Below are positions 35,052 through 57,189 of a stretch of DNA of 60,843 nucleotides, piece by piece. The stretch is from Candidatus Limnocylindria bacterium (GTDB lineage: Bacteria > Chloroflexota > Limnocylindria > P2-11E), in assembly GCA_035699805.1 (NCBI GenBank), contig DASSPF010000041.1, positions 1 through 60,843 of the forward strand, given 5' to 3'. Made by a program: the position numbers and the translations under genes. Position 1 is the stretch's first letter, and every line of letters begins with the position of its first letter. Below the pieces are notes generated by a model, which ran no database searches, was not told the origin of the DNA, and worked only from the letters and a program-made list of their open reading frames with translations.

Positions 35052-35075
35052 GCGGTCACCGCGGCGGTCGGGCCG

Positions 35076-36233: not shown

Positions 36234-37909
36234 CGGAGATCGCGAGGACGGACAAGGGGCGCTGGCTCGAGGACGTGTACGGGCCGGCCGTGCGCAAGCG
36301 CGCGGAGCGGCGCGAGCGGTTCACCACGATCTCCGGCGAGCCGGTCGAGCCGCTGTACACGGCCGAGGATCTGGGCGGCTTCGACCCGACGCGCGATCTC
36401 GGTGCGCCTGGCGAGTTCCCGTACACCCGAGGCATCCATCCGACCATGTATCGCGGCCGGCTATGGACGATGCGCCAGTTCGCGGGATTCGGCTCGGCCG
36501 AGGACACCAACGAGCGCTTCCACTACCTGCTCGCGCACGGCGTGAACGGACTCTCGACCGCGTTCGATATGCCCACGCTCATGGGCCGCGATGCGGACGA
36601 TCCGCTCTCGCGCGGCGAGGTCGGCCGCGAGGGTGTGGCCGTCTCCACGCTGCGCGACATGGAGATCCTCTTCGACGGCATCCCGCTCGATGAGGTCACG
36701 ACATCCATGACCATCAACGGGCCGGCGTCGATCATCTGGGCGATGTACCTGGCGGCGGCGGAGCGTCGCGGGATCGCGCTCACGGCGCTCGGCGGGACGA
36801 TCCAGAACGACTGTCTCAAGGAGTACATCGCGCAGCGCGAGTGGATCGTCCCGGAGCGCGCGGCGATGGCCCTCGTCGTGGATACGTTCCGCTTCGGGGC
36901 GCGTGAGGTCCCCAAGTGGAACACCATCTCCGTCTCCGGGTACCACATCCGCGAGGCCGGAGCGACCGCGCTCCAGGAGCTCGCGTTCACGCTCATCGAC
37001 GGCCTCGAGTACGTGAAGTGGGGCGTGCGCGCCGGTCTGGACGTGAACGAGTTCGTCCCGCGCATGTCCTTCTTCTTCGACGTCCACAACGACTTCTTCG
37101 AGGAGATCGCCAAGTTCCGCGCCGCGCGCCGCATCTGGGCGCGCGAGATCGAGCGCCGCTATCACCCCACCAACCCGCGAGCGCTCCAGCTGCGCACCCA
37201 CGCGCAGACCGCGGGCGTCTCGCTCACGGCGCAGCAGCCGTACAACAACGTGGTCCGCGTGGCGCTCCAGGCCCTCGCCGCGGTGCTCGGCGGCACGCAG
37301 TCGCTGCACACGAACTCGCTCGACGAGACCTACGCCCTCCCCACGAAGGAGGCGGTGACGCTCGCGCTCCGGACGCAGCAGATCATCGCGCACGAGTCGG
37401 GGGTGGCCGACACGGTCGATCCGCTCGCGGGCTCGTACTACCTCGAGCACCTCACGCAGCGGATGGAGGAGGGCTTCGCGCGGTACCTCGCCGAGATCGA
37501 GGGGATGGGCGGTATGGTCGAGGCGGTGGAGCGCGGCTACCCGCAGCGCGAGATCACCGAGGCGTCGTTCCGCTTCCAGGAGCAGGTCGAGAAGCGCGAG
37601 AAGCTCATCGTCGGCATCAACGCGTACGCCACCGACCAGGACCCGCCGATCCCGCTCCTCCAGATCGACCCGGAGGTCGAGGCGAAGCAGGTCGCGCGGC
37701 TGGCCGAGGTGCGCCGCACGCGCGACGGCGGCCGCTGGCGCGAGTCGATGGACCGGCTGCGCGAGGCCGCGATCGCGGCGAAGACGAGCGATCGCGCGGA
37801 GCTCATGCCCGCGTTCCTCGAATGCGCGCGCGCCTACGCGAGCGTGGGCGAGCAGGTCCAGGTGCTGAAGGAGGTCTTCGGTGTCTACCGAGACCCGGGC
37901 TACTACTAG
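36230..37909 (+). CDS. B12-dependent acyl-CoA mutase, large catalytic subunit (methylmalonyl/isobutyryl-CoA mutase family; ICM-like F/Q signature)
   Basis: [32 protein letters not shown]...STAFDMPT...[17 protein letters not shown]. There is an ATGA overlap with the preceding ACAD gene. Confidence 0.92.
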
Positions 37910-39614
37910 CCCGCGGGAGCTGCTCGCGCAGGTCGAGGGCGGCTACCGCGCCACGCGCGCGGTGATCGACGCGCTCGGGCCGGAGCGCTTCGACACGCGC
38001 CTCCTGTCCGGCATGACGCTGCGCCAGATGGTGGCGCACCTTGCGGCGTGGGAGGAGACGGTGCCGCCGCGGGTGGAGCGCGTGCTGCGCGGCGAGGGCG
38101 ATGACCCGGCGTACGAGGATGTGGACGGCTTCAACGCGCGGGTCTTCGAGGAGACCAGGGATGCGACGGTGGAGCACCTGCGCGCGCGCTACGCCACCGT
38201 CCACGAGCGCGTGGTCGAGGTCCTCCGCTCATTCCTGGGCCGCGACGTCCCCGCGCTGGCGCTGGACATCGTCGAGTGGAACACCACAGGTCACTATCCC
38301 GATCACTACCGTGACCTCGGCAGCGCGATCACCGACGCGACCGAGCTCGCCGCCGTCGTGCGGCGCGGCTGGATCGACTTCCGGATCGATCTCCTGGCCC
38401 TCGGGCCGCTCATCGAGCGGCCGACGCCGATCGGCTGGACCTACATGGACCTGCTGGCCCACGTGATCGGATGGGAAGAGCTCACCGTCGCGCGCCTTGC
38501 GACGCTGCGCGAGACCGGCGAGCCGGTCGGCCCGGGCGGCACCGCCGACGAGATCAACGCCGACCTCGTGGCGCGCGCGCGGGGTCGCTCCGCGCGCGAG
38601 CTCTTCGAGGAGTTCGACGCCGCGCACGCGCGTCTGGTGGAGGAGATCGGGAAGCTCTCGCCGGAGCAGCTCCACGCGCACGACGCGTGGGCCATCGCGG
38701 TCGTCGCCGGGAACACCTACGGCCACTACGCCGAGCATCACCACGAGCTCCAGGCCGGCGTCCCGCAGACGAGCGGCGAGCTCGTGGAGCGCCTGCGCGA
38801 CGGCTGGCGCCCGTACCGCCGCGCGCTCGCGCGTGCCGGCCTCGCGCCGCTCGGCGGACCAACGGCCTCGGGGTGGACCGGCAAGGCCCTGCTCGCGCAC
38901 CAGGCCGGCTGGCTGGAGTGGTGCCGGAGCGAGGTCCCCAACCGGCTCGCCGGCACGCGCGGGCCCACACCGGTCTCGGTCGAGCACAACGCGCGCGAGG
39001 CCGCGGCGGCGGAGGGCCGCTTGGCGCACGAGGTCGTCGCGCGGCTCGATGCCGCGTACCGCGCGCTCCTGGATGCGCTCACGGCGCTGCCGGCCGACGC
39101 CGCGGCGCCGACGGACCTGGTGCGTCTGGTGGCCGCGACCGTCTACGGCCACTTCGCCGAGCATCTGCACGAGCTCGAGGCGCTCGTGCCCACCGACACC
39201 CGGGCGGTCCTCCGCCGGTTCGACCAGACCTGGTCGCGCTTCCGCGGACGGATCCGCGAGGTCGGTCGGGCCCGGCTCATGGACGCCACGCCCTCGGGCT
39301 GGTCGTACCGCGACATGTGCGCACACGCGGCGAACTGGATGCAGAACGCGGTGAGCGAGCTCGCCGGAGCGCCGCGGTCCTGGAGCCGGGAGACGATCCA
39401 GGCCGAGAACGAGCGCGCCGTCGAGGCGCACCGGCTCGTCGGGGCCGAGGCGATGCTCGACGAGCTCGACACGTCCCACGCGCGCGTGCGCGAGGCGATC
39501 GCGGCGCTCGGTGATGAGCGCCTGCGCGATCCGAGGATCTTCGGGATCGTGGCGTTCTACACATACCTGCACTGGGAGGAGCATCTGCACGAGGACCTGG
39601 GGGTGGATCTGTGA
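37881..39614 (+). CDS. Protein of four tandem DinB/DfsB-like four-helix-bundle repeats
   Basis: A roughly 142-aa repeat occurs four times. Helix-1 motifs are [48 protein letters not shown] and [17 protein letters not shown]-terminal His motifs are [30 protein letters not shown] and [10 protein letters not shown]. The gene overlaps both flanking mutase genes. Confidence 0.75.
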
Positions 39615-40033
39615 AGCGACCGATCAGGGTCGTCGTGGCGAAGGCCGGCCTGGACGGACACGATCGCGGGGCGAAGGTGGTCGCGCGCGCGCTGCGCGAC
39701 GCCGGCATGGAGGTCATCTACACCGGCGTCCACCAGACGCCAGAGCAGGTCGTCGAGACCGCGCTCCAGGAGGATGCCGACGCGATCGGCATCAGCCTCC
39801 TCTCGGGGGCGCACAACTACATCTTTCCGCGCGTCGCCGAGCTCATGAAGGCGAAGGGCATGGACGACGTGCTGCTGTTCGGCGGCGGGATCATCCCGGA
39901 GGCCGACGTCCCCGGGCTCCAGAAGGCCGGCGTGGAGCGCATCTTCCCGCCGGGCGCCTCGCTGGAAGAGATCGTGCGGTACCTGAACGAGGCGGTGGGG
40001 AAGCGCCGCGGAGCACCGGTCAGTGGCCGGTAG
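39611..40033 (+). CDS. Acyl-CoA mutase small subunit (cobalamin-binding domain)
   Basis: The DxHxxG B12-binding motif lies in [15 protein letters not shown], and SLLSGAH and GGGIIP are also present. There is a GTGA overlap with the upstream gene. Confidence 0.92.
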
Positions 40034-40142
40034 CTTCGATGGCGGACCGCTGACCCGCCAGCCGGTCGCGAGCGAGGTAGGGAAGGCGCGGGAGAGCGAG
40101 ATCGCGAAGGACTACGCGAGCTCGCAGGAAAGGAGACGCGCC

Positions 40143-40541
40143 ATGGCCATCTTTGGGGGAAACAAGCAGGACACCCGCCCCGTCGACGAGGGCCTCGGGA
40201 AGCTCCGGGGAAGCGATGAGGCCACCGCCGTCGCGTTCTGGAAGAAGCGCCTCGAGCTCACCGCACAGGTGGGCAGCGAGGTCGCGCGCGTCGGCGCGCT
40301 CACGCCACAGCTCCGTGAGCTCACGCGGATGACCGACCGTGAGGAGCGCAAGCGCCTGACGCGTGCGCGGATCATCGCGTTCTCGCAGCTCAGCCAAGAG
40401 CAGCGCCAGGTGGTCGGCGAGGCCCGCCGCAAGGCCTTCGCGGTGGATCCCGGCGTCATGGAGGACGACCAGGCGATGGTGGACGAGATCCTGCCCACGC
40501 TCGATCAGAGCGTGGTCGCGGTCTATCCGCGGCGTCCATAG
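40143..40541 (+). CDS. Hypothetical protein (helical, charged)
   Basis: A 132-aa ORF. AAAGGAG lies upstream of the ATG at 40143. I recognise no family. It sits inside the operon. Confidence 0.5.
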   Translation: MAIFGGNKQDTRPVDEGLGKLRGSDEATAVAFWKKRLELTAQVGSEVARVGALTPQLRELTRMTDREERKRLTRARIIAFSQLSQEQRQVVGEARRKAFAVDPGVMEDDQAMVDEILPTLDQSVVAVYPRRP

Positions 40542-41681
40542 ATGGACCTCCGCTATCGCGACGACCAGCTCCTCGTTCGCGACACGGTCCGCGACTTCGT
40601 GCGGTCGCGGATCGTGCCGAACGCGGACGCCTGGAACGACGCGGCGGAGTTCCCGCTCGAGCTCCTCCCTGAGCTCGCGGCGCTCGGGCTGCTCGGGCTC
40701 GCGGTGCCCCCCGAGCACGGCGGCGCCGGGCTCGACATGCTCACCATCGCCATGGTGATGGAGGAGCTGGGCGCCGGCGACGGATCGATCGCGCTCACTC
40801 TCGCCGCGCACAACTCGCTGTGCATCGGTCATCTCCTCGTGGCGGCGAGCGAGGAGCAGAAGCGCCGTTGGCTCCCGCCGCTCGTCCGCGGCGAGCATCT
40901 CGGCGCGTGGGCGCTCACCGAGCCCGGCTCCGGCTCCGACGCCATCGCGGTGCAGAGCACCGCGCGGAACGTCGGTGAGGGCTACGTGCTGAACGGCACG
41001 AAGCAGTTCATCACCAACGCCTCGCTCGCCGGTCTGGTCGTGGTGAACGTCGGCAGCGGTCCGCGGAAGATGAGCGCCTTCGGCGTGGCCCGTGGCGCCG
41101 TGGGTCTCCGTCCGGGCAAGCGCGAGCGCAAGATGGGCCTGCACGCCAGCGATACCTCGCAGCTCATCCTCGAGGACTGCCGCGTCGGCGCGGCCGACCT
41201 CATCGGGACCGATGGCGGCGCGTTCGCCGACGTGAAGAAGGTCCTCGACAAGGGTCGCATCGGCATCGGTGCGCTGGCCATCGGTCTCGGCCGCGCGTCG
41301 GTGGAGACGGCCACGGCCTACGCGAAGCAGCGCACGCAGTTCGGGAAGGCGCTCGCGGAATTCCAGATGATCCAGTGGAAGCTCGCGATAAGCCGCACCG
41401 AGCTCGACGCGGCGCGCCTCTTGGTGCATCGCGCCGCGGCGCAGGCGGACGCGGGTGCGCCGTTCGGCGTCGCCGCGTCCAAGGCCAAGCTGTACGCCTC
41501 CGAGGCCGCGAGTCGCGCGGCGAACGCGAGCCTCCAGGTCCTCGGCGGGTACGGGTATCTGCGCGACCACCCGATCGAGCGGCATCTGCGCGACGCGAAG
41601 CTCATGGAGATCGGCGAAGGGACGAGCGAGGTCCAGCGACTCGTGATCGCGCGCGACCTCGTCCAGCAGGCCACCGCGTGA
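40542..41681 (+). CDS. Acyl-CoA dehydrogenase
   Basis: [21 protein letters not shown] and GEGTSEVQ. Confidence 0.9.
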
Positions 41682-45042: not shown

Positions 45043-45852
45043 CTAACGCCGTCGGGCGCGTGGGTCCCACGCGCGATAGAGGCCGTCGGCGAGCAGGTTC
45101 GCGCCCAGCACGGTCGCGGCGAGGGCCACTCCCGGGAAGACCGACATCCACCAGGCCAGACGCAGGAAGGGCTGCGCGTCGTTCAGCATCCGGCCCCAGC
45201 TCACCACGCTGCGGTCGCCCACGCCGAGGAACGCGAGGCCGGCCTCCACGAGGATGGCGGCGCCGACCTGGAGGGCCGCGCTGGTGACCGCGATCGCGAC
45301 GGCGTTCGGCAGCAGGTGTGCGCGGATGATGCGCAGGTCCGAGCAGCCGAGCGCGCGCGCCGCGAGCACGAACTCGCGCTCGCGCAGCGACAGGACCTGC
45401 GAACGGAGCAGGCGCGCGGTCTGCGGCCAGAACGTGAGGCCGAGGAGGAACGTGAGCGCGAGGAAGCTCGGACCGAAGAGCGCGGCGACGAGCACCGCGA
45501 GGAAGAAGCGCGGCACCGTCTGGACCAGCTCGGTCAGGCGCATCAGCAGGTCGTCGACCAGGCCGCCGCGGTAGCCGGCCACCAGGCCGACGGCCACCCC
45601 CACGAGCGCCGAGGTCAGCGCGGCGACCATCCCGACGATGAGCGACACCCGGCCGCCGTGGAGGACGCCCGAGAGGACATCGCGGCCGAGGTCGTCGGTC
45701 CCGAAGGGATGCGCCGGCGATGGCGGCTGCAGCGCGCGCGCGTCGGTGGCGCCCGGCGCGGTCGGGATGAGCCACGCCCCAGCGGTCGCGAGCAGCGCGA
45801 TGGCCGCGAGCAGCCCGAGGCCCGCGAGGAGAGGGAACGACGCGCCCTTCAC
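45043..45852 (-). CDS. Peptide/nickel ABC transporter permease (DppC/OppC-like)
   Basis: HPFGTDDLGRDVLS and the EAA-type loop AARALGCSD. The GTG at 45852 overlaps the stop of the upstream permease gene. Confidence 0.88.
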   Translation of the reverse strand: MKGASFPLLAGLGLLAAIALLATAGAWLIPTAPGATDARALQPPSPAHPFGTDDLGRDVLSGVLHGGRVSLIVGMVAALTSALVGVAVGLVAGYRGGLVDDLLMRLTELVQTVPRFFLAVLVAALFGPSFLALTFLLGLTFWPQTARLLRSQVLSLREREFVLAARALGCSDLRIIRAHLLPNAVAIAVTSAALQVGAAILVEAGLAFLGVGDRSVVSWGRMLNDAQPFLRLAWWMSVFPGVALAATVLGANLLADGLYRAWDPRARRR

Positions 45853-46775
45853 CGCAGGCGCACCCGCGGGTCCAGACGCGCGTAGGTGAGGTCGGTGACG
45901 AGGTTCGCGACGACGACCGAGACCGCGGCCATGAGGAAGATCGCCAGGAGCAGCGGGTAGTCGCGCGCGAGGGTCGCGTCGTACAGGAGGCGCCCCACGC
46001 CGGGCCAGGCGAAGATGATCTCGGTCAGCACCGCGCCGGTGAGCAGGGTGCCGATGTGGCCTCCGACCACGGTCACCACCGGAAGGAGCACGTTCGGCAG
46101 CGCGTGGCGGCTCACGATGCGCGCGGCGGCGAGGCCCTTCGCGGCGGCGGTGCGCGCGTAGTCCTCGTGCATGGCGTCGCGCAGGCCGCTCCGCGCGAGA
46201 CGCGCGACGAGCGCCAGCTGCAGGAGGCCGAGGGTGACCGCCGGGAGCACGAGGTGGTGCGCGATGTCCGCGGCGTGGCCCAGGCCGTCGGGCGGTGTGC
46301 GCACGCTGGCCATGCCCTGCACCGGGAACCAGCCGAGCGTCACGGCGAAGGCGAGGACGAGCATCTGTCCGAGCCAGAACGCCGGGAGCGCACCGCCGAG
46401 GAGCGTGAGGATCGTCACCGCGTGATCGGCGGGCCGGTCGGCGTGCCGCGCACCGACGAGCGCCGCCGCGATGCCACCGGCGGTCGACAGGACCAGGGCG
46501 GTGACCATGAGGAGCAGCGTGGCCGGGATGCGATCGGCGACGACCTCGAGGGCAGACTGGCGGTGCGCGTAGGAGAAGCCGAGGTCTCCGCGCGCGAGGT
46601 TGCCGAGATACACCACGAACTGCTCCAGGAGCGGCCGGTCCAGGCCGAACTTGCGGCGCATCTCGGCGTAATACCGCGCGTCGCCCGACTCGCCGGCGAA
46701 GATCGTCACCGGGTCGCCCGGCGCAAGATGCACCAGAAGGAACGCGATCACCAGGATCGCGAACACCACCGGCAC
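45849..46775 (-). CDS. Peptide/nickel ABC transporter permease (DppB/OppB-like)
   Basis: HLAPGDPV and YARTAAAKGL motifs. The family-typical N-terminus (L)SRYVVRRLLQA lies upstream of the GTG at 46775 and is only reachable from the CTG at 46811. Confidence 0.85.
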   Translation of the reverse strand: MPVVFAILVIAFLLVHLAPGDPVTIFAGESGDARYYAEMRRKFGLDRPLLEQFVVYLGNLARGDLGFSYAHRQSALEVVADRIPATLLLMVTALVLSTAGGIAAALVGARHADRPADHAVTILTLLGGALPAFWLGQMLVLAFAVTLGWFPVQGMASVRTPPDGLGHAADIAHHLVLPAVTLGLLQLALVARLARSGLRDAMHEDYARTAAAKGLAAARIVSRHALPNVLLPVVTVVGGHIGTLLTGAVLTEIIFAWPGVGRLLYDATLARDYPLLLAIFLMAAVSVVVANLVTDLTYARLDPRVRLR

Positions 46776-46817
46776 CGCCTGGAGCAGTCGCCGGACGACG
46801 TAGCGGCTCAGGGTGTT

Positions 46818-48425
46818 CTACTGCCGCGAGGCAGCTTCCGCGAGGTTCCCGCTCCAGTAGTAGAGATCCCTGAAGGACTTCTGCCAGGCGCGATACCCCT
46901 CGGTCTCGATCAGGCCGAGGTAGGGGAGGTCCTTCGCCACCTGGTCCTGGATCTCGAAGTAGGCCTTCGCCCGGTCGGATTTCTCGACCGCGGCGACCGC
47001 CTTGTCGAAGCTCTCGTCGACCTTCGGGTTGCGGTACGCCGCACCATTGGAGAAGAGGACGGGGCCGATGTTCGACGACACGTACATGCGCCGGACGCCG
47101 ATCTCGGGGTCGGGGCCGTTGCAGTACGACGCGAAGCCCAGGTCGAAGTCCCGCTTGATGAACACCCGCTGGTTCGCGGCATTCACCTCGAGCGCCGCTA
47201 GCTGCAGGTCCACCCCGACCTTCGCCAGGTCGGCCTTCATGAGCTCGCCGTACTTGGCGAATCCGGTCGCGTGCACGAACGTGACCTTGAAGCGCATGCC
47301 GTCGGCGCCCTTGGCGAGGCCGGCCTGATCGAGGAGCGCATTCGCCTTCGCCGTGTCGAGCGGGTACTGCTGGACGCTCGGGTTGTGTGCCCAGCCGATC
47401 GCGCTCGAGATCGCCGCCGTTGCGACCTTGCCCTGACCGAACTGGATCTCGGCGAGCATCTTGTTCCGGTCGATCGCGTGGGCGAACGCCTGACGCACCT
47501 CGGCCTTGTTCACGTTCGGACGCTCGAGATTGAAGATGAGCGTGGTGATGCAGAACGAGCCGCCCGACCCGGCGCCGCTCTTGGTGATGGTGTACTTGTC
47601 GCTCTGCCGCAGCCGGGCGAGGTCCGGCCCCGGGACGCCGGAGAGGTAATCGACCTCGCCGCGCTCGAGCGCGGCCACCTGGGTCGCGGCCTGGGGGATG
47701 ATCTTGAACACGAGCTCGTCGAGGTAGGGAAGGCCCGGCTTGAAGTAGTCGGGGTTGCGTGTCATGCGTACGACGTCCCCCTTCGTGTACGCCGCGAGCT
47801 TGAACGGGCCGGTGCCCACGGGCTTGAGGTTCGCCTCGGCCGTGGTGGGGTCCTTCCCCTCGTAGATGTGCTTCGCGACGATCGGCGCCTCGACCACGTC
47901 CAGACGCTGGAGCAGAGGCCCGTAGGGCTGGGTGAAGCGCATCACGACCGTGCTCGGGTCGGGTGTGTCGATGCCCGCGAGGACCGCCTCCAGGCCGGCC
48001 TTCGTTCGCGCGTGGTACTTGAGGAGCACCTGCTCGAAGGAGAACTTCACGTCGGCGGAGCTGAAGGCCGTCCCGTCGTGCCACTTCACGTTCTGGCGGA
48101 GCTTGAAGGTGTACGTCCTCCCGCCGTCGCTGACCGTCCAGGACTGCGCGAGGTCCGGCTTCGGCTCGAGCTTCTCGTCCAGGAAGACCAGCCCGTTGTA
48201 GAGGTTGTCGGCGACGAAGTGCGTGCCGCCGGCGGTCGTGATGGCCGGGTTGAAGTGCCCGGGGTCGGCGCCGGCCGCGACGACCAGCGTTCCCCCGCGC
48301 TGGGGAGTGGCGGCCGCGCTCGCGGTGGCCGCGCCCGAGGGGCTCGGCGCGGACGATGGCGGGGCGCACGCGATCGCGAGCAGGACGGTGAGCAGCGCGA
48401 AGGCGAGGAAGCGGCGGACCGGCAT
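46818..48425 (-). CDS. Peptide/nickel ABC transporter substrate-binding lipoprotein (family 5)
   Basis: The lipobox is LLAIAC. The body is family-5 SBP-like (WHDGTAFSSADVKFSF). Confidence 0.88.
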   Translation of the reverse strand: MPVRRFLAFALLTVLLAIACAPPSSAPSPSGAATASAAATPQRGGTLVVAAGADPGHFNPAITTAGGTHFVADNLYNGLVFLDEKLEPKPDLAQSWTVSDGGRTYTFKLRQNVKWHDGTAFSSADVKFSFEQVLLKYHARTKAGLEAVLAGIDTPDPSTVVMRFTQPYGPLLQRLDVVEAPIVAKHIYEGKDPTTAEANLKPVGTGPFKLAAYTKGDVVRMTRNPDYFKPGLPYLDELVFKIIPQAATQVAALERGEVDYLSGVPGPDLARLRQSDKYTITKSGAGSGGSFCITTLIFNLERPNVNKAEVRQAFAHAIDRNKMLAEIQFGQGKVATAAISSAIGWAHNPSVQQYPLDTAKANALLDQAGLAKGADGMRFKVTFVHATGFAKYGELMKADLAKVGVDLQLAALEVNAANQRVFIKRDFDLGFASYCNGPDPEIGVRRMYVSSNIGPVLFSNGAAYRNPKVDESFDKAVAAVEKSDRAKAYFEIQDQVAKDLPYLGLIETEGYRAWQKSFRDLYYWSGNLAEAASRQ

Positions 48426-48581: not shown

Positions 48582-49025
48582 ATGTCGGGGGGTGGAGCGT
48601 TGCTCCGCGTCAGCGCGCTGGCAAAGCGCGCGGAAGTCCCGCCACGCACTGTCAGGTTCTACGCCGACATCGGGCTGTTGCGGCCGGCCAAGCGCGGCGA
48701 CAACGGGTATCGCTTCTTCGGCCCCGATGCGGTCGAGCGCGTGCAGCTCCTGCGTCGGGCCACGCGTCTGGGGGTCTCGCTCCGGGAGATCTCGCGCGTC
48801 CTCGAGATCGCGGAGCGCGCAAACTGCGCCGACGCTCATCAGGCGTTCGCGCAGGCGCTGCGCGAACGCATCGCGCAGGTGGATCGGAGCATCGGCGAGC
48901 TGCGGGCCACCCGCGAGCAGCTCGTGGACCTCGCGGCCGAGAGCGACGTCGGGTGCACGGATGCCTTCTGCCTCTGCCGGACGAGCCCGCACGACGCGGT
49001 GCCGATCACCTGGAGGGAGCGATGA
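48582..49025 (+). CDS. MerR-family regulator with a Cys-rich C-terminus
   Basis: The HTH is LRVSALAKRAEVPPRTVRFYADIGLL. The C-terminal cysteines are ...ERANCADAH... and ...GCTDAFCLC.... There is an ATGA overlap with the cooC-like gene. Confidence 0.85.
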   Translation: MSGGGALLRVSALAKRAEVPPRTVRFYADIGLLRPAKRGDNGYRFFGPDAVERVQLLRRATRLGVSLREISRVLEIAERANCADAHQAFAQALRERIAQVDRSIGELRATREQLVDLAAESDVGCTDAFCLCRTSPHDAVPITWRER

Positions 49026-49774
49026 AGCTCGCCGTGGCCGGCAAGGGCGGCGCGGGCAAGACGACGATCTCCGCCACGCTCGCGCGATCGCTCGCGCGCG
49101 CGGGCCGCACGGTCCTCGCGATCGACGGCGACCCCAACGCGAACCTCGGGATCGCGCTCGGTGTCCCCGCCGCGGATCTGGAGCGCCAGCCGCGCGTGCC
49201 CCGCGACCTCCTCGAGCAGCGCGACGGCGACGCCTGGCTGAAGGTCCCGGCCGACCAGCTGCGCCGCGACTACGCCATCGCTGCGCCCGACGGCGTGCAG
49301 CTCATGGCGGTCACCACCGTCGACCATGCCGGCACCGGCTGACTGTGCTCGGCGCACCGGTCGGTGCGCGGGGTGGCGGGGGCGCTCCTCGGCGCGAAGA
49401 GCGAGGTGAACCTCCTCGACATGGAGGCGTCCATCGAGCATCTCGGCCGCGGGACGCCCAAGGGTCTCGACACGCTGCTCATCGTGGTGGAGCCGTACTA
49501 CCGCGCGCTCGAGACCGCGGGTCGGATGGCGCCGCTGGCGCGCGAGCTCGGCATCCCGGGGATCCTCGCCATCGCGAATAAGCTCCGCGACGCCGAGGAC
49601 GCGCGGGTCATCCGCGACTACTGCGCGTCGCACCAGCTCGAGCTCGTCGCCGAGCTGCCGTTCGACGAAGACGTTCGCGACGCCGATCGCCGCGGGCGTG
49701 CGGTCATCGATCACGCACCCGAGTCGAGCACGGTCCGGCTCGTCGGCGAGCTCGGCCGTCAGCTGATGCGGTAG
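49022..49774 (+). CDS. cooC: CooC-type (MinD/ParA-fold) nickel-insertion maturation ATPase with one in-frame TGA (49340-49342); candidate selenocysteine codon, otherwise a pseudogene
   Basis: The deviant Walker A is MKLAVAGKGGAGKTT, and LLDMEASIEHLGRGT is present. The two ORFs in the track (ending at 49342, starting at 49364) share one frame and are separated by a single TGA. The TGA sits at GTG-[TGA]-L-C, which aligns with the CxC metal motif. Confidence 0.7.
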
Positions 49775-49785: not shown

Positions 49786-51042
49786 ATGGCGGTGACCATC
49801 GAGCCGACACCGTCGCGGGCCACCCGGAGCGCGCCGCCGTTCGAGCAGACCGGCAATGTGGCCGGGGCCTCGCAGGAGCAGTGGGCGCGCGCGGCGATCG
49901 AGCCACGCGGGAAGCCGACCGGCCTGGGCGGGGCGTTCGAGCGGGTGCACGTGTTCTGGCTCGCGGGCATGAGCTGCGATGGCTGCAGCATCGCCGTGCT
50001 CGGCGCGACCGCACCTGCGGTCGAGAGCCTGCTCACCGGGACGCTGCCCGGCCTTCCGCTGCTGCTGCTCCACCACACCGCGATCCAGGTGGAGGCGGGG
50101 GAGGCCTACATGGAGCCCCTGCGCAAGGCGGCGGCGGGGACGCTCGAGGATCCCTACGTGATCGTCTACGAGGGCTCCGTCGCGGACGAGGACAAGCTCG
50201 GCTCCGGGTACTGGTCGGCCATCGGCGAAGAGCTGGACGGGCAGGGGGACAAGATCCAGGTGCCCTCGGCCGTGTGGCTGCGCCGCCTCGCTCCGGGTGC
50301 GGCCGCGGTCATCGCCATCGGGACCTGCGCGACGTGGGGCGGCATCCCCGCCGCGATCAACAACGTGACCGGTTCGATGAGCGTGGCGGACTGCCTGGGC
50401 AAGGACTACCGCAGCGCCCTCGGCCTACCGGTGGTGAATATCCCCGGCTGCTCGCCGGTGGGCGACAACTTCACCGAGACGGTCGCGGTGACGCTGCTGT
50501 TCCTCCAGGGCCTGGGCCCCGCTCCGGAGATCGACATGCACGGCCGCCCGGCCTGGCTCTTCGGCGAAACGGTGCACCGGACGTGCACTCGCGCCGGCTT
50601 CTACGAGGAGGGCACCTTCGCCAAGCGCTACGGCGACAAGGAGTGCCTGGTGGAGATCGGCTGCTGGGGGCCGGTGGTGGACTGCAACATCACCTCCCGC
50701 GGCGCGATCAACCACCTGGGCGGCTGCATGAACGTGGGTGGCGTGTGCATCGGCTGCACCATGCCGGGGTTCCCGGACAAGTTCGCCCCGTTCTACAAGG
50801 CCCCGCCGGGGACGCTCGTGTCCGGCACCGGATCGCGGATGATCGGCGGCTTCGTGCGGCCGCTCCGGCGCATCACCGAGCGCAAGATGAACCGGCAGGT
50901 GAACTGGGATCGCGAGGGCGACGTCTCGAGTGGGTGGGGACTGCCCGAACAGCCGAGCGTCGTCGACAAGAGCATCCAGAAGTTCTACGACTGGCTACGT
51001 CATCGCGGTTCGTTCGGTACGTCGAAGAAAGCCGGGTCCTGA
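49786..51042 (+). CDS. [NiFe]-hydrogenase small subunit (no Tat signal)
   Basis: The Fe-S ligand motifs are GMSCDGCS, GTCATWGGIP, PGCSPVGDN, CLVEIGCWGP and GGVCIGCTMPGFPD. The N-terminus lacks an RRxF twin-arginine motif. GAGGAGGA lies upstream. Confidence 0.92.
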   Translation: MAVTIEPTPSRATRSAPPFEQTGNVAGASQEQWARAAIEPRGKPTGLGGAFERVHVFWLAGMSCDGCSIAVLGATAPAVESLLTGTLPGLPLLLLHHTAIQVEAGEAYMEPLRKAAAGTLEDPYVIVYEGSVADEDKLGSGYWSAIGEELDGQGDKIQVPSAVWLRRLAPGAAAVIAIGTCATWGGIPAAINNVTGSMSVADCLGKDYRSALGLPVVNIPGCSPVGDNFTETVAVTLLFLQGLGPAPEIDMHGRPAWLFGETVHRTCTRAGFYEEGTFAKRYGDKECLVEIGCWGPVVDCNITSRGAINHLGGCMNVGGVCIGCTMPGFPDKFAPFYKAPPGTLVSGTGSRMIGGFVRPLRRITERKMNRQVNWDREGDVSSGWGLPEQPSVVDKSIQKFYDWLRHRGSFGTSKKAGS

Positions 51043-51056: not shown

Positions 51057-51362
51057 ATGGATCTGAACATGACGGTCGCGCAGTTCTGGTGGCTGATCCT
51101 GGGCCTCGGTCTGGTCATCGTGCTCGTCGTCGCGGCGTTGCTCGTCGCGATCATCCTGGCGGCCCGGCGCATCGAGCGCGCGGCGGCGGACATCTGGACC
51201 GTGGGCAAGCAGATCGCGGGCAACACCGTGCAGATCTGGCAGCTCGGTGAGACGAACGCCACGGCGAAGGCGATCCACGGCGTCGCGCTCGACATCGCCG
51301 GCGGCGCGAAATCGATCGACGAGCGCCTCGCGAAGCTGCCCCAGGTCCTTGGAAAGGGCTGA
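51057..51362 (+). CDS. Small single-pass membrane protein, paralog 1 of 4 (type A)
   Basis: 101 aa. The TM helix is FWWLILGLGLVIVLVVAALLVAIIL, followed by a helical Ala/Gly-rich tail with an IAGNTVQI motif. GAGGAGGATGAG lies upstream. Confidence 0.7.
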   Translation: MDLNMTVAQFWWLILGLGLVIVLVVAALLVAIILAARRIERAAADIWTVGKQIAGNTVQIWQLGETNATAKAIHGVALDIAGGAKSIDERLAKLPQVLGKG

Positions 51363-51365
51363 CCG

Positions 51366-51671
51366 ATGGACCAGATCACGCTGCTCTGGTGGCTCACCGG
51401 GATCTATCTCGCGATCCTCGTGCTCGTGCTCGCCTTCTCCGTCGGTAGCGTCCTGTTCTATCTCTGGCGCATCGGGACGACCCTCGGCGCCATCGCCGAT
51501 GGCCTCAGCGCGGTCGAAGGGCACACGCGTCCGCTCGGCGAGAAGATCGGAGCGGCGAACGCCGGCCTCGGCGCGATCGCCGGCTCGCTCTCCTCGGCTC
51601 GCGACCACCTCGTCGCGACGGATGCCGCGCTCGCCACGCTCACCAGCGGCGGAGAGGAGCGTGTGGCCTGA
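51366..51671 (+). CDS. Small single-pass membrane protein, paralog 2 of 4 (type B)
   Basis: 101 aa. The TM helix is LLWWLTGIYLAILVLVLAFSVGSVLF. The tail carries LSSARDHL. There is a 3-nt gap to the previous gene. Confidence 0.7.
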   Translation: MDQITLLWWLTGIYLAILVLVLAFSVGSVLFYLWRIGTTLGAIADGLSAVEGHTRPLGEKIGAANAGLGAIAGSLSSARDHLVATDAALATLTSGGEERVA

Positions 51672-51973
51672 TGGAGGCGATCATCGTCATCTGGTGGATC
51701 ACGCTCGCCGTCGCGCTCGTGCTGACGGTCATCGCGCTCGGGATCATCACGCGCTTCGTCCTCCACGCCCGCGAGATCGACCGGCTGGCGCGCATCACCC
51801 TGAAAGCGGCGCAGGGCGTGGCCGGGAACACCGCGAACATCGCGCTCCTCGACACGCTGCTGGCCCACGCCACCGCGCTGGCCGCGACCTCCGCCGCGAT
51901 CGACGGTGTCGCGGCGCGGATCCACGGTCACGGCGGCGCGGTCGTCCGTGCGCTCTCGGGAGGTCGCCGCTGA
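51671..51973 (+). CDS. Small single-pass membrane protein, paralog 3 of 4 (type A)
   Basis: 100 aa. The TM helix is VIWWITLAVALVLTVIALGII. The tail carries VAGNTANI. There is a TGATG overlap with the previous gene. Confidence 0.7.
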   Translation: MEAIIVIWWITLAVALVLTVIALGIITRFVLHAREIDRLARITLKAAQGVAGNTANIALLDTLLAHATALAATSAAIDGVAARIHGHGGAVVRALSGGRR

Positions 51974-52269
51974 TGGATGTCCTTCTCGCGCTGCTCACCG
52001 GGATCGAGCTCATCATCGTCCTCGCGGTGGTCTCGTACGGCGTCCAGACCATCACGCACGCGCTGAAGGGCATCAACCGTTCGATGGCGAAGATCTCGTG
52101 GGGTGTCCGTGCGATCGAGAGCGAGACCGCCCTGCTCACCGCCAACGTGCCCCCGCTCATCGACACGTTCAAGGGACTCGACGACGGCGCCAAGATCATC
52201 GCCGAGCGCCTTTCGTCCGCGGAGCGCCATCTCGCTTCCGCGGCCCAGCTGCTCGGCGCCGAGAAATGA
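51973..52269 (+). CDS. Small single-pass membrane protein, paralog 4 of 4 (type B)
   Basis: 98 aa. The TM helix is LLALLTGIELIIVLAVVSYGV. The tail carries LSSAERHL. There is a TGATG overlap with the previous gene. Confidence 0.7.
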   Translation: MDVLLALLTGIELIIVLAVVSYGVQTITHALKGINRSMAKISWGVRAIESETALLTANVPPLIDTFKGLDDGAKIIAERLSSAERHLASAAQLLGAEK

Positions 52270-52280: not shown

Positions 52281-54182
52281 ATGTGCTTCAAGAACCTCCC
52301 CGTCGAGTTCGATGACCAGGGGAAGGCCTTCCTGCGGGCGGGGGTCACCGATCCGTACAAGGTGACGCGCACCCAGACGGCGGCCGAGCGTGAGGACCGC
52401 ATCAAGGAGCTGCTCGCGCGCAACGGCCACATCAAGGAGGTGAGCATCGACCCGGTGACGCGCGTCGCCGGCGCGCTCGCCTTCCACAGCGTCGTCGACC
52501 TCCAGCAGCGCCGGGTGGAGGACGCGCACTCGATGGCGACCCTGTTCCGTGGCTACGAGATCATCCTGAAGGGGCGCGACCCGCGCGACGCCATCTTCAT
52601 CTCGAGCCGCGCGTGCGGCGTGTGCGGCGGGGTGCACGCGAACTGCTCCGCCGAGGCCATCGAGATGGCCTTCGCCGCTCCGCCGCCGCCGATGGGCGTC
52701 GTCGTGCGGAACCTCGGACAGGCCGCGGAGTTCCTCTACGACCACCCGCTGCATCTGTACCTGCTGGCCGGCCCCGATTACTCCGAGGCCGTCGTCGGCG
52801 CCACCAACCCCGAGATCCTGGAGCGCGCGCGGACCTTCCGCGCCCGCGGCAAGGACGTCCACGGCTTCGCGACGATCGGCGAGATCATGAGCGCGCTCAA
52901 CCCGCTCACCGGGAAGCTGTACCTCGAGGCCCTCGAGGAAACGCGCCGGGCGCGCGAGATGACCGTGCTCGTCTGGGGCAAGTACCCGCACCCGCAGACG
53001 ATCGTCCCGGGCGGCATCAGCGCGACGGTGACCGCGCAGACGCTGAACGAGATCGGCGTCCGTCTCAACTTCTTCTTCGACTACGCGAAGAAGATGATCA
53101 GCATCTGGAACGACGTGTTCGACTTCCTCTACGAGGTCGAGCCGCGGTTCCACGATGTGGGCAAGCGGCCCGTGAGCATGATCGACCTCGGCATCTGGGA
53201 ATACCACGAGGGCTATGACGCGGACTACGCCCACGCGAACGAGTGGGGGAACCGCCGCTGGGCCACGCCCGGCGTCGTGGTGGACGGCGAGTTCCGCACC
53301 ACCGACCTGCAGAAGATCAACGCGGGCCTCGAGGAGTTCGTGGATCACAGCTACTACGAGGAGTGGCCCACGAACGCGCCGAAGTTCGCGACGGACCCGG
53401 CGGGCAACCCGCTCTCCCCGTATCACATGTGGAACAAGGACACGCTGCCCAAGCCCGGCGGTCGCAGCTGGCGCGAGAAGTACAGCTGGGCCACCGCGCC
53501 GCGGTGGGACCGCCGCGTGGTGGAGGCCGGCGCGTACGCGCGCATGTGGACGACGGCCGGTGCGACGACCCTGCCGAAGAACCCCTTCATCCACACCGAC
53601 GGCAAGGGTATGAAGATGCTGCTGCCATCGGTGGGGCTTCCCGAGATGGAGGTGGAGTGGCGGATCCCGAGCGAGCTGAACGCGATCGAGCGCAACCGCG
53701 CGCGCGCCTATGCCCAGGCCTACACGGCGCTGGTCGCCTTCAACAACCTGCTCGCCGCGTACGACCTGCAGAAGAAGGGCGAGACCCGCGTGAGCCGCGA
53801 CTTCAGCGTTCCGAAGGAGCACCGCCTCGGCGTGGGCTTCTGGGGCGCCGGGCGCGGCTACCTCTCGCACCACCTCGAGATGGAGAAGGGTGCGCTCCTC
53901 AACTATCAGATCTGCACGCCCTCGACCATCAACGCGTCGCCGCGCGACCCGTTCGGGCAGCCCGGCCCCTACGAGGAGGCGGTCATGAACACGCCGCTCA
54001 TCGAGCGATTCGCGACGCCCGAGGAGTACAAGGGCATCGACATCCTGCGGACGATCCGCAGCTTCGACCCGTGCATGCCCTGCACGACGCACGTGTACGC
54101 GGGCTCGCACACGATCGTGCGCGAGGTGAACACCTGCGCCTGCATCCTGGACGAGGAGCCGTCCGCCGAACATGTCACCTAG
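52281..54182 (+). CDS. [NiFe]-hydrogenase large (catalytic) subunit
   Basis: The N-terminal motif is SSRACGVCGGVH and the C-terminal motif is SFDPCMPCTTH. A 29-aa extension follows the C-terminal His, consistent with endopeptidase processing. Confidence 0.93.
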   Translation: MCFKNLPVEFDDQGKAFLRAGVTDPYKVTRTQTAAEREDRIKELLARNGHIKEVSIDPVTRVAGALAFHSVVDLQQRRVEDAHSMATLFRGYEIILKGRDPRDAIFISSRACGVCGGVHANCSAEAIEMAFAAPPPPMGVVVRNLGQAAEFLYDHPLHLYLLAGPDYSEAVVGATNPEILERARTFRARGKDVHGFATIGEIMSALNPLTGKLYLEALEETRRAREMTVLVWGKYPHPQTIVPGGISATVTAQTLNEIGVRLNFFFDYAKKMISIWNDVFDFLYEVEPRFHDVGKRPVSMIDLGIWEYHEGYDADYAHANEWGNRRWATPGVVVDGEFRTTDLQKINAGLEEFVDHSYYEEWPTNAPKFATDPAGNPLSPYHMWNKDTLPKPGGRSWREKYSWATAPRWDRRVVEAGAYARMWTTAGATTLPKNPFIHTDGKGMKMLLPSVGLPEMEVEWRIPSELNAIERNRARAYAQAYTALVAFNNLLAAYDLQKKGETRVSRDFSVPKEHRLGVGFWGAGRGYLSHHLEMEKGALLNYQICTPSTINASPRDPFGQPGPYEEAVMNTPLIERFATPEEYKGIDILRTIRSFDPCMPCTTHVYAGSHTIVREVNTCACILDEEPSAEHVT

Positions 54183-54690
54183 CGATGCCGCCACCGCCGC
54201 CGTCGACGTGACGCCGGCGCGCGTCCTGGTCGCGGGCGTGGGGTACACCAACCTCGCCGACCATTCGGCGGGACTGCACGCGATCGACCGGCTCGGCCGG
54301 ATCGGCGACCACGTGGACGTGGAGGACTTCTCGTACGGCGCGATCGATGTCCTCTTCACGCTGCAGCGGCGTCCTCCGTACCGCAAGGCCGTCTTCATCG
54401 CGGCGGTCGAGCGCGGCGATCCGGTGGGCTCGGTCCGCTGGCAGCGCTGGGAGCGTCCCGCGATCTCGGCGGCCGAGCTCCAGGAGAAGGTCGCCGAGGC
54501 GGTCACCGGCGTGGTGAGCCTGGACAACCTCCTGCACATCACCGCGCACTTCGGCGGGCTGCCGGAGGACGTGGTCGTGGTCGAGATCGAGCCCGGCGAG
54601 GAGCGCTACGGGCCGGCCCCCGGACCGGTCGTGGACGCCGCGATCACCGAGGCGCTGCGCCTCGCGCGGCACGAAGCGGGGATCGCCTGA
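54172..54690 (+). CDS. Divergent HyaD/HybD-like hydrogenase maturation protease paralog
   Basis: VLVAGVGYTNLADHSAG resembles the GxGNxxxxDDGxG motif but is degenerate. The family's (V/I)DA Asp position reads FIAAV. The start could be 54172 or the GTG at 54208. Confidence 0.5.
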   Translation: MSPSDAATAAVDVTPARVLVAGVGYTNLADHSAGLHAIDRLGRIGDHVDVEDFSYGAIDVLFTLQRRPPYRKAVFIAAVERGDPVGSVRWQRWERPAISAAELQEKVAEAVTGVVSLDNLLHITAHFGGLPEDVVVVEIEPGEERYGPAPGPVVDAAITEALRLARHEAGIA

Positions 54691-55058
54691 TGGACGCCGC
54701 GCCGATCCGCGCGAAGGACGAGGTGCTCCAGGTCATGTACTGGATGCTCGGCGAGGGCATCGCCCACGAGGTGACGCCGTCGTACCTCGCGCGCTTCCTG
54801 GTGATCCCGGAAGCGGACGTCGCCGCCGCGCTCGCGCAGCTCGGCCGCGAGCGTCTCGCCCTCCGAGGCGGCGCCGCGGACTCCTACCGGCTGTCGGAGG
54901 ACGGCATCCACGAGGGGGGACGGCGCTTCAAGGACGAATTCAGCGACCTCACCAAGCAGCCGCACGGTGAGTGCGCGCCCGGCTGCTGGTGCCATAAGCC
55001 CGAGGGGGAGGGGAAGCCGTGCCCGAGCACGACGCGCGCGGCCGAACATGCCCACTGA
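54690..55058 (+). CDS. Hydrogenase-cluster hypothetical protein (winged-helix-like N-domain, Cys/His-rich C-terminus)
   Basis: 122 aa. The C-terminus contains HGECAPGCWCH. There is a TGATG overlap with the upstream gene. Confidence 0.6.
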   Translation: MDAAPIRAKDEVLQVMYWMLGEGIAHEVTPSYLARFLVIPEADVAAALAQLGRERLALRGGAADSYRLSEDGIHEGGRRFKDEFSDLTKQPHGECAPGCWCHKPEGEGKPCPSTTRAAEHAH

Positions 55059-55719
55059 TCCGCTGGACCTCGACGCGGAGCTCGCGCGGCTCGAGCGCAT
55101 CATCGGCACGTTCGAGAACGAGACCGACGACGCCGTGCGCGAGCGGGTGTTCGAGCTCCTCGAGAGCGTGGATGCGGTCCACCGTCGTCTGATCTGGACG
55201 CTGGCCGAGCGCCTCTACAACGAGCGCGCGGAGCTCTTCGATCGTTTGCTCGAGGACCCGCTCACCAGCGTGCTGTTCGAGATGTACGGGCTCGTCGCGC
55301 CGTCGCGGCGCGCCGAGGAGGGCGGCGACGCGCCGGCGGCACCGGTCGCGATGGTCGGGCTCGCCGATCTCGAGGCGACCATCCCGGCCCCGCTCGGCTG
55401 GTACGACGCCGGGTCCGCCGACGAGGTGCGCGCCGACGCGCTTGTCGCGCGCGACGTGGAGGGCGAGCGCGTGCTCCTGGTGCGCGCCCCCGGCGGCGTG
55501 AAGGCGTACCGGGACCGCTGTCCCGAGGCCCCGATGCCCCTGAACGCCGCCGTGGTGCGTGACGGGCTCATCCTGTGTCCGTGGCATGACTGCCGGTTCG
55601 ATGTGGAGACCGGCGAGCGGCGTGATCGCGCCGGCGAGGGGCTCGCGAGCATCCCGGTCACCGTCCGCGACGGTGCGGTGCGTCTGGGTCTGCGCATCGG
55701 CCGGCGGTCCGCGGCATGA
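55048..55719 (+). CDS. Hydrogenase-cluster protein with a C-terminal Rieske-like domain (first His ligand replaced)
   Basis: C-P-E-x16-C-P-W-H has the exact Rieske CxH-x16-CxxH spacing, but Glu replaces the first His. The N-domain is helical. Confidence 0.65.
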   Translation: MPTDPLDLDAELARLERIIGTFENETDDAVRERVFELLESVDAVHRRLIWTLAERLYNERAELFDRLLEDPLTSVLFEMYGLVAPSRRAEEGGDAPAAPVAMVGLADLEATIPAPLGWYDAGSADEVRADALVARDVEGERVLLVRAPGGVKAYRDRCPEAPMPLNAAVVRDGLILCPWHDCRFDVETGERRDRAGEGLASIPVTVRDGAVRLGLRIGRRSAA

Positions 55720-56204
55720 CCCGCACGCTCGTCGTCGGCTTCGGCAACGAGCTGCGCGCCGACGACGGCGTGGGGCTTGCCGTCGTGCGGAGCCTTGCCG
55801 CCGCGGGTCTGCCCGACGGCGTGCGGATCGCCGAGGTCGGTATCGGTGGCATCGCGCTGCTGCACGAGCTCCAGGCCGGGTGCGATCGCCTGGTCATCGT
55901 GGACGCGGTGCGCCGCGGTGGCGCCCCGGGGACCGTCTATGTGCTCACTCCGGTGCTGCCCGCGCCGGGCCGCGCGCTCGACGAGCACAACGCGCTCGCG
56001 GACGCGCACTTCGCGGAGCCCTACGCCGCGCTGGTGCTCGCGCGCTCGCTCGGCGTGCTGCCGGCGGACATCAGCGTCGTAGGCATCGAGGCCGCGGAGA
56101 CGGACGAGCTCACCACCGAGCTGACGCCCGCGGTGGCGCGCGCGGTCGCGGTCGCCGCCGATCGCGTGCGGCGTCTTGCCGCGGCCGCGCGGGAGGCCGC
56201 CTGA
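55716..56204 (+). CDS. Hydrogenase maturation endopeptidase (HyaD/HybD family, canonical)
   Basis: LVVGFGNELRADDGVG and LVIVDAV motifs. Confidence 0.88.
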   Translation: MTRTLVVGFGNELRADDGVGLAVVRSLAAAGLPDGVRIAEVGIGGIALLHELQAGCDRLVIVDAVRRGGAPGTVYVLTPVLPAPGRALDEHNALADAHFAEPYAALVLARSLGVLPADISVVGIEAAETDELTTELTPAVARAVAVAADRVRRLAAAAREAA

Positions 56205-56446
56205 TGTGCCAGGGGATCCCGCGTCCGGTGCTCGCGGTCGCGCCGGGCCGGCTGCGCGTCGACATCGACGGGCGGCCCACGTGGGTCGCCGCGGGCGGGG
56301 CGCTCCGCGACGTGACAGCGGGAGAGCACGTCGTCGTGTACGCGGGCGTCGCGCTCGACCGCGTGTCGCCGGAGGAGGCCAGCGAGCAGCTGCGCTTTCT
56401 GCGCGAGCTCGAGGAGCTCTTCCCCGCCACGGAAGACGGCGCATGA
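56204..56446 (+). CDS. hypC: Hydrogenase assembly chaperone HypC/HupF
   Basis: The N-terminal MCQGIP motif is invariant in HypC. The protein is 80 aa. There is a TGATG overlap with the upstream gene. Confidence 0.88.
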   Translation: MCQGIPRPVLAVAPGRLRVDIDGRPTWVAAGGALRDVTAGEHVVVYAGVALDRVSPEEASEQLRFLRELEELFPATEDGA

Positions 56447-57189
56447 CGCTCGAGGCGACGCGGTCGGTGAACGGCACCACCCGGTTCGTGCGCTACGGCT
56501 TCATGCCGAACCGCCTGCGCTACTGCGGGGGTGACGACAACCGCACCATCTTCGAGTACGCCCTCGAGGACGCGCGCGAGCCGACGCTCGACACGATGCT
56601 CCGCGCGTTCAGCGGCGCCGTACCGTATCTGCGGCTCATCGCCCGCGGGAACGGCATCGCCGACCCCTTCGACGAGCGCGTCGTGGAGGCGTACTGGATC
56701 GGCAATCCGCTCCTCGAGCGGGTGGAGGCGAAGGATCTGTACGAGTCGCTCATCGCGCGCTACGGCAAGGAGCTGCCGAAGCGGGTCATGGACCGGGTCG
56801 CCGCCAAGGCGCCCGCGGGGGCGCGCCCGCACCACACCTTCCACGTGTTCGATGTCTGGCGCCACGCCGACCGTGGCTCGGCGGACGTCCTGGCGATGCT
56901 CGACAGCTGCCGCATCAGCTGGGGTGCGGTGACCGCGGTGGAGGGCGCCGAGCTCGTCGTCTCACGGCGGCCGCTCACGCTGCGTGGCGGCAAGCTCGTC
57001 CTCGCCGATGCGCAGCCCGAGCGGGTCACGCGGCTGCTCGACGGGCGCGGCTTCGCCACGGACGTGGCCGTGGGCGACGTGGTGTCATTGCACTGGGGCT
57101 GGGTCTGCGAGCGTCTCGACCCGCGGCAGGCCGCCGCGCTCGAGCGCTACACCGAACATCACCTGCGTCTGGCGAATGGAACGCTCTAA
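56443..57189 (+). CDS. Conserved hypothetical protein of the hydrogenase cluster
   Basis: 248 aa. There is an ATGA overlap with hypC. I cannot assign a catalytic motif (possibly a DUF6390-type protein; unverified). Confidence 0.6.
   Translation: MTLEATRSVNGTTRFVRYGFMPNRLRYCGGDDNRTIFEYALEDAREPTLDTMLRAFSGAVPYLRLIARGNGIADPFDERVVEAYWIGNPLLERVEAKDLYESLIARYGKELPKRVMDRVAAKAPAGARPHHTFHVFDVWRHADRGSADVLAMLDSCRISWGAVTAVEGAELVVSRRPLTLRGGKLVLADAQPERVTRLLDGRGFATDVAVGDVVSLHWGWVCERLDPRQAAALERYTEHHLRLANGTL

Follow-up and report, generated by a model that had tools for sequence, protein, structure and literature searches.

A probable selenocysteine codon in a CooC-type ATPase gene at the head of a [NiFe]-hydrogenase cluster from a Candidatus Limnocylindria bacterium

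What does a TGA codon mean when it lies within an otherwise intact gene, exactly where a metal-binding cysteine is expected? This question is raised by a 60,843-nucleotide stretch of DNA from a Candidatus Limnocylindria bacterium (Chloroflexota; assembly GCA_035699805.1, contig DASSPF010000041.1, positions 1 to 60,843 of the forward strand), referred to below as the window. A sequence-only reading had joined two open reading frames (ORFs) of the window across one TGA into a CooC-type ATPase gene heading a [NiFe]-hydrogenase operon, and had proposed the TGA, followed by a hairpin resembling a selenocysteine insertion sequence (SECIS), as a codon for selenocysteine (Sec). Comparison with related genomes favours this proposal: the UGA at 49340-49342 is assigned to Sec with a probability of about 0.85, because it occupies a Cys column, homologues with Cys at this position exist, a conserved hairpin is confined to the genes carrying TGA (TGA-forms), and cultured members of the carrier lineages possess SelA, SelB and SelD.

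The interrupted gene and its relatives

Both ORFs belong to one forward frame of 250 codons from ATG 49022 to TAG 49772-49774, of which the TGA is the sole interruption. Seven codons (CTG TGC TCG GCG CAC CGG TCG) lie between the TGA and GTG 49364, the start assigned by the ORF finder. The ATG shares an ATGA overlap with the stop codon of the MerR gene upstream and is preceded by a GGAGGGAG ribosome-binding site, while the joined protein starts with MKLAVAGKGGAGKTT and also includes LLDMEASIEHLGRGT. TGA terminates 24 of the 39 genes in the window; therefore the genetic code is standard, and a reassigned code was rejected. A scan of the window for further in-frame TGAs with coding-like flanks returned solely 49340-49342, the rest being ordinary gene junctions.

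For protein-level searches of the joined sequence, the TGA was replaced by Cys. The protein matches the MinD/ParA-type P-loop family CbiA of Pfam (PF01656) and carries the deviant Walker A motif AGKGGAGKTT, fitting xKGGxGK[ST]. Its best solved relative, in a phmmer search against PDB, is CooC1 of Carboxydothermus hydrogenoformans (3kje), aligned over residues 1-223 (E-values in Table 1). This alignment bears out the earlier placement of the TGA on the first Cys of the CooC1 CxC motif: ...HAGTG-[TGA]-L-C... falls on ...KGGSQ-C-Y-C..., and U107-L-C109 occupies the same column as C-Y-C, with UGA instead of Cys at the first position. CooC1 (PDB 3kje, 3kjg, 3kjh, 3kji) thus shares with the window protein the MinD-type P-loop fold as judged by sequence, the Walker A motif GKGGxGKT and the metal motif column. 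However, the first ligand of CooC1 is Cys whereas the same ligand is UGA-encoded here, and the window family has an extra invariant His, giving the motif U/C-x-C-x-x-H. In the window, Cys109 is encoded at 49346-49348 and His112 at 49355-49357. Every full-length homologue from the protein database, at about 50% identity, has G-C-x-C-x-x-H, and G106, C107, C109 and H112 are invariant among the full-length Cys homologues. By analogy, His112 may perhaps join Sec or Cys in the putative nickel site.

The orthologues do not carry disruptions at random positions. When each GTDB species was represented by a single genome, 77 of the 80 nearest loci (L001-L080; 46-68% identity) had TGA at the aligned position, within the motif G-*-[LM]-C-x-x-H-A-x-V-R, and the only exceptions are three Dormibacterota genomes with TGC. 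The carriers within Chloroflexota are Limnocylindria (the closest, 68%), Tepidiformaceae, Chloroflexia and Thermomicrobiales; TGA is also carried by Rubrobacteraceae, Acidobacteriota (Pyrinomonadaceae, Vicinamibacterales), Armatimonadota, Vulcanimicrobiota and a few odd bins. With an added metagenome scan, the pooled set comprises 100 unique TGA-forms and 39 unique Cys-forms of the same motif subfamily, and 99 of the 100 TGA-forms lack any other stop. The ratio of nonsynonymous to synonymous substitution rates (dN/dS) is 0.41 upstream of the TGA and 0.38 downstream, and stays below 1 in all 937 pairs. Furthermore, the window gene itself has TGA, not TGC, and the identical hairpin in 10 of 10 independent runs or assemblies; at least 10 independent copies vary at three synonymous third positions only. 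On a rough neighbour-joining tree, the family has undergone at least 7 switches between Sec and Cys. These comparisons show the in-frame TGA to be a conserved codon that is read through in the family. One metagenomic TGA-form (locus L140, 1995-2738) reads G-U-L-G-S-M-H and lacks the second motif Cys.

The RNA hairpin behind the codon

The stem described by the sequence-only reading, GCGCACC (49352-49358) pairing with GGTGCGC (49363-49369) around a GGTC loop (49359-49362), is present in the window, and its suggested extension by a lower helix is also returned by RNAfold as a hairpin from +4 to +40. The predicted energy is -23.7 kcal/mol for 44 nt, against -14.3 for the upper stem alone and about -4 for the register that relatives prefer. 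Such a hairpin by itself is weak evidence; its significance comes from comparison with relatives.

Hairpin pairs are numbered below with the U of UGA as 1, on a gap-free alignment of 97 TGA-forms. The family has a consensus helix at 17-23/29-35 (17:35 to 23:29), with the loop N-G-U-G-C at 24-28, and it is formed in 86.6% of the alignment cells. Across this helix there are 88 double-sided changes vs 33.6 in shuffles, and none of 500 shuffles reaches 88; control registers slid by 1-3 columns are 17-52% paired. For instance, pair 21:31 is CG in 53 and UA in 31 sequences, and pair 22:30 is GC in 45 and AU in 29. The covarying pairs join synonymous sites with amino-acid-determining sites. Thus, of the earlier claim that the hairpin is a recoding signal, a conserved and covarying hairpin 3' of the TGA stands, but it lies in the register 17-23/29-35 and not in the 13-19/24-30 originally put forward.

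The Cys-forms serve as the natural contrast. In the 39 Cys-forms with the same H-A-x-V-R peptide, the consensus columns are paired in 28-41% only. The best hairpin has an energy of -11.0 kcal/mol in TGA-forms vs -5.8 in Cys-forms (p=7e-15), while the 30 nt upstream of the codon, taken as a control, do not differ between the two. The somewhat higher G+C content of the TGA-forms (0.69 vs 0.61 in Cys-forms) partly confounds the energy comparison, though not the covariation. A hairpin specific to the TGA-forms is thereby shown. Two Cys-forms, L086 (3001-3762) and L087 (2556-3317), with TGC or TGT and the peptide CLCSEHIT[IV]RD, still make 6-7 of the 7 consensus pairs; each adjoins a TGA-form paralogue. 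Their hairpin may be the remnant of a SECIS after a recent switch from Sec to Cys.

Bacterial SECIS elements are stem-loops just 3' of the UGA, with an apical loop about 16-37 nt away that contains G or G-U. Both the family stem-loop and the window variant agree with this distance and loop rule. Compared with the SECIS of Escherichia coli fdhF (taken from NC_000913.3), which spans +3 to +42, the window hairpin at +4 to +40 likewise begins right after the UGA. The apical tetraloop is GGUC in both, at +22 to +25 in fdhF and at +20 to +23 in the window, hence 2 nt nearer the UGA, whereas the two stems are unrelated in sequence. The consensus element of the family is shorter than that of fdhF, with a 7-bp stem and the loop N-G-U-G-C at +24 to +28.

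Some copies depart from the consensus register. Only 3-4 of the 7 consensus pairs are made in 19 of the 100 TGA-forms, among them the window and the Rubrobacteraceae copies, and stem 13-19/24-30 is a stable structure in both of these. It seems to be a lineage variant common to the window and Rubrobacteraceae. The window has H-R-S where the family has H-A-[AT], with three central consensus pairs broken, and the stem in use sits 4 nt nearer the UGA than the consensus one. Its closest relatives L001, L002 and L084 keep the consensus register.

A second CooC-like paralogue adjoins the main gene in related genomes and has two in-frame TGAs one codon apart, within the motif N-P-G-U-P-U-C-G-[IV]-S-P-E-Q-L-L. 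It is found at L003 (1306-2043), L001 (6-509), L083 (894-1613), L090 (1029-1754) and, on the reverse strand, L053 (3892-4614), L057 (3882-4607) and L039 (1925-2347), and it is absent from the window. Even Dormibacterota, with Cys in the main copy, carry this paralogue. One conserved hairpin, CCUGAGC-AGUU-GCUCGGG, lies at +22 to +39 from the first UGA, and it is absent from a Cys version of the paralogue at L097 with N-P-G-C-M-C-C-G (a CxCC motif). The two candidate Sec codons (U-x-U-C) of these sister paralogues appear to be served by one hairpin.

Selenocysteine and its alternatives

To our knowledge, Sec is the sole established outcome of a hairpin-directed UGA in a Cys column. Moreover, SelA, SelB and SelD have been documented in cultured members of the carrier lineages, namely Rubrobacter xylanophilus, Thermomicrobium roseum, Sphaerobacter, Nitrolancetus and Chloracidobacterium (PMC5029168 Table S1).

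Several observations weigh on the other side. The window hairpin has a z-score of -0.73 against dinucleotide shuffles, which is unremarkable for DNA of 70% G+C, and an equally stable perfect hairpin follows 3.7% of the 1146 TGA triplets of the window. The window copy makes 4 of the 7 family-consensus pairs and relies on the alternative stem 13-19/24-30, which was rejected as the family SECIS as it shows no covariation (76.4% paired, equal to shuffles). Rfam gave nothing at gathering thresholds over the whole window and chance-level matches only around the TGA. A tRNA scan of the 60.8-kb window and the fetched loci found no tRNA-Sec, and tblastn with E. coli SelA, SelB and SelD found nothing in the window or in L001-L080 (about 1 Mb of fetched loci), the later metagenome loci being outside this search. 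According to a recent review, selenoproteins are rarely retained by aerobic bacteria. As for function, neither HypA nor HypB was seen in the window, and nickel binding and the hydrogenase client are inferred from homology and gene neighbourhood only.

Some of these points would also fit a UGA that is recoded to another residue. Cys could be inserted by a tRNASec-like tRNACys(UCA) together with a SelB paralogue (selC*/SelB*), or hairpin-stimulated near-cognate read-through could yield Trp, Cys or Arg. The inserted residue cannot be told from sequence alone, no Sec machinery turned up in the window or the fetched loci, the carriers are aerobes, where the same review considers Sec rare, and the selC* tRNACys(UCA) is proven to decode the opal codon as Cys (PMC5389517). 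However, the reported occurrences of selC*/SelB* are confined to anaerobic Firmicutes, Thermodesulfobacteria, Nitrospirae and Deltaproteobacteria, in every case together with a complete Sec system (PMC5389517), whereas SelA, SelB and SelD are on record for the carrier lineages. The position of the hairpin and the G-U of its loop resemble the fdhF SECIS. If Cys were the product, TGC would suffice without any hairpin, as it does in the Cys-forms. Recoding to a residue other than Sec is hence considered unlikely.

Less probable still is a split gene, in which a 106-residue P-loop half ends at the TGA, a C-terminal half starts at GTG 49364 and the two polypeptides assemble. Gene callers do give exactly such halves everywhere (106 aa and 136 aa on 10 contigs), and the best 120 database matches to the C-terminal part are all fragments of 119-144 aa. 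Yet the supposed GTG start is a conserved Val codon lying in the hairpin loop; it is GTT, GTA or GTC in many members, which are unable to initiate, and GTG 49364 has no preceding ribosome-binding site. The seven codons from TGA to GTG would go untranslated, although they hold the conserved L-C-x-x-H with its invariant Cys and His. Besides, the TGA sits exactly on the metal-ligand Cys column in about 100 genes, a place for which a split offers no reason.

A TGC-to-TGA nonsense pseudogene or a base-calling or assembly error, for which one base change would suffice and with which the statistically unexceptional hairpin of the window would agree, is effectively refuted by the TGA of 10 independent assemblies that differ at synonymous sites only, by its presence in 77 of 80 related species genomes, by the equal purifying selection on the two halves and by the retention of every family-invariant residue.

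Hydrogenase setting, proposed function and novelty

As the sequence-only reading had held, the cooC-like gene heads a [NiFe]-hydrogenase cluster, and the small subunit gene begins 11 nt after its stop (Table 1). Between the small and large subunit genes sit four tandem paralogous ORFs (51057..52269). A Nik/Opp-type ATP-binding cassette (ABC) transporter (45043..48425, reverse strand) is transcribed divergently from the hydrogenase operon. In most related loci the cooC-like gene is likewise directly upstream of, or within, a hydrogenase cluster. In Thermomicrobiales loci, the TGA-form adjoins a Nik-like transporter rather than a hydrogenase (L070, 7133-11110, with the transporter after the gene). 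The MerR gene upstream of the cooC-like gene recurs in Limnocylindria-like and Rubrobacteraceae loci. Its product may be a metal sensor for the operon; the best NCBIfam matches are CueR, ZntR and MerR, each below its cut-off.

Table 1. Features of the window in and around the cooC-like gene
Feature	Positions	Strand	Basis and remarks
NikC-like permease	45043-45855	-	NCBIfam Opp4C (2e-75) above Opp2C/nikC; below equivalog cut-offs
NikB-like permease	45849-46817	-	NCBIfam Opp2B nickel permease, 8e-82; below equivalog cut-off
NikA-like binding protein	46818-48425	-	NCBIfam nickel_nikA, 2.1e-64; below equivalog cut-off
MerR-family regulator, metal-sensor type	48582-49025	+	Pfam MerR_1, MerR-DNA-bind; C-terminal C-x4-C-x-C (GCTDAFCLC); ATGA-coupled to cooC-like gene
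cooC-like P-loop ATPase gene	49022-49774	+	Pfam CbiA PF01656, 1.2e-16; CooC1 3kje, E=1.8e-29; read through TGA
UGA codon 107, proposed Sec	49340-49342	+	First position of U-L-C-S-A-H motif
SECIS-like hairpin	49343-49379	+	RNAfold; lower helix 49343-49350/49371-49379, upper 7-bp helix 49352-49358/49363-49369, loop GGUC 49359-49362
[NiFe]-hydrogenase small subunit	49786-51042	+	Pfam Oxidored_q6, NiFe_hyd_SSU_C; own GAGGAGGA ribosome-binding site
Four tandem paralogous ORFs of about 100 aa	51057-51362, 51366-51671, 51671-51973, 51973-52269	+	One hydrophobic N-terminal stretch each, membrane-spanning look
[NiFe]-hydrogenase large subunit	52281-54182	+	Best PDB match 5aa5 (HofG), E=4.9e-149; C-terminal DPCMPC, Cys not Sec
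Protease-like gene	54172-54690	+	Only TIGR00072 superfamily model, just under cut-off
Gene without assigned function	54690-55058	+	
Rieske protein	54967-55719	+	Pfam/NCBIfam
Maturation protease	55716-56204	+	HycI domain, Pfam/NCBIfam
HypC	56204-56446	+	Pfam/NCBIfam
DUF6390	56446-57189	+	Pfam/NCBIfam

By gene order, the hydrogenase cluster is arranged like group 1l, while the closest solved structure, 5aa5, is the group 1h enzyme of Cupriavidus necator, as given in a published account (bioRxiv 10.1101/2020.08.06.239558). There, the signature of group 1l in aerobic soil bacteria consists of short membrane-type ORFs between the subunit genes together with Rieske and HupD. The window cluster shares the short hydrophobic ORFs between the subunit genes and the Rieske protein and maturation protease downstream; it has four interposed ORFs, whereas five are described in that account, whose consulted passages mention no CooC-like gene. 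The cluster contains two genes resembling hydrogenase maturation proteases (54172-54690 and 55716-56204).

CooC1 is a nickel-binding ATPase that matures CO dehydrogenase, and its CxC motif is the nickel site. However, no genes for CO dehydrogenase/acetyl-CoA synthase were found in the annotated window or in the examined neighbours of related loci, and by its context the cooC-like protein is not a CO dehydrogenase maturation factor. The window gene sits instead with an uptake [NiFe]-hydrogenase and a Nik-like transporter, and the hosts of its family, in contrast to the CooC1 system, are soil lineages described as aerobic trace-gas oxidisers. Owing to this adjacency to the hydrogenase, the Nik-like transporter and the homology to CooC1, the protein is regarded as a putative nickel-delivery ATPase for the hydrogenase. 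In the proposed mechanism, SelB carrying Sec-tRNASec would bind the hairpin at 49343-49379, with its GGUC loop, when the ribosome reaches the UGA, and Sec107 would be inserted. This would create a U-x-C-x-x-H metal site in place of the C-x-C of CooC1. By analogy with CooC1, two such motifs would meet on ATP-dependent dimerisation to form a Se2S2 nickel site, from which the metal would pass to a client upon ATP hydrolysis. The likeliest client would be the hydrogenase large subunit encoded downstream in the group-1l-like cluster, and the adjacent Nik-like transporter would supply the nickel.

The earlier surmise that no ATPase of this class was a recognised selenoprotein agrees with the 2026 inventory, in which CooC/MinD/ParA-type ATPases are not among the 119 prokaryotic selenoprotein families. 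NCBIfam has no model for the UGA-containing CooC-like family, and a whole-word literature search for CooC with selenocysteine returned no report of a Sec-containing CooC. A tblastn search of PLSDB plasmids matched only an unrelated Acetoanaerobium CooC. The recoded gene family is real and conserved, and very probably a new selenoprotein family. It also seems rather likely that its members are widespread, unrecognised Sec-containing nickel chaperones of the CooC type that specifically serve the oxygen-tolerant, high-affinity hydrogenases of soil aerobes.

CobW-type proteins are P-loop nucleoside triphosphatase metallochaperones. A CobW-related selenoprotein (NF041053) is the nearest family listed in the 2026 inventory and provides a precedent for Sec in a cysteine-type motif (UxxC); by its description, it differs from the present family in not being MinD/CooC, in its UxxC motif and in having no hydrogenase link. 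The [NiFeSe] hydrogenases offer another likeness, as both are presumed to bring selenium into contact with nickel in hydrogen metabolism. Nevertheless, the large subunit in the window keeps Cys (DPCMPC), and the proposed Sec resides in the putative nickel-delivery protein. Reports of [NiFeSe] enzymes are limited to sulfate reducers and methanogens (2026 inventory).

If the Sec assignment is right, the selenoproteome would gain a metallochaperone of the MinD/CooC class, and a selenoprotein would be placed in lineages described as abundant trace-gas-oxidising aerobes (Chloroflexota, Rubrobacteraceae, Pyrinomonadaceae and others), in contrast to what the review holds for aerobes. Selenium would be linked to nickel delivery for hydrogenases thought to consume atmospheric H2; hydrogenase maturation, and hence soil uptake of atmospheric H2, would be partly selenium-dependent, and H2-uptake activity is predicted to depend on selenium or SelB. 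Additionally, the natural Sec/Cys pairs of the family would supply material on why Sec is chosen as a metal ligand. The annotation is also in systematic error, as hundreds of database entries are fragments of 106 aa and about 135 aa from one gene; the best 120 C-terminal matches are named 'hypothetical protein' or 'CO dehydrogenase maturation factor'.

Elsewhere in the window, positions 27322-41681 hold a second MerR regulator followed by an ordinary and unrelated block for fatty-acid and propionate catabolism, which includes a thiolase, a 3-hydroxyacyl-CoA dehydrogenase, acyl-CoA dehydrogenases, an electron-transfer flavoprotein, a CCG/4Fe-4S protein and a methylmalonyl-CoA mutase with its B12-binding subunit.

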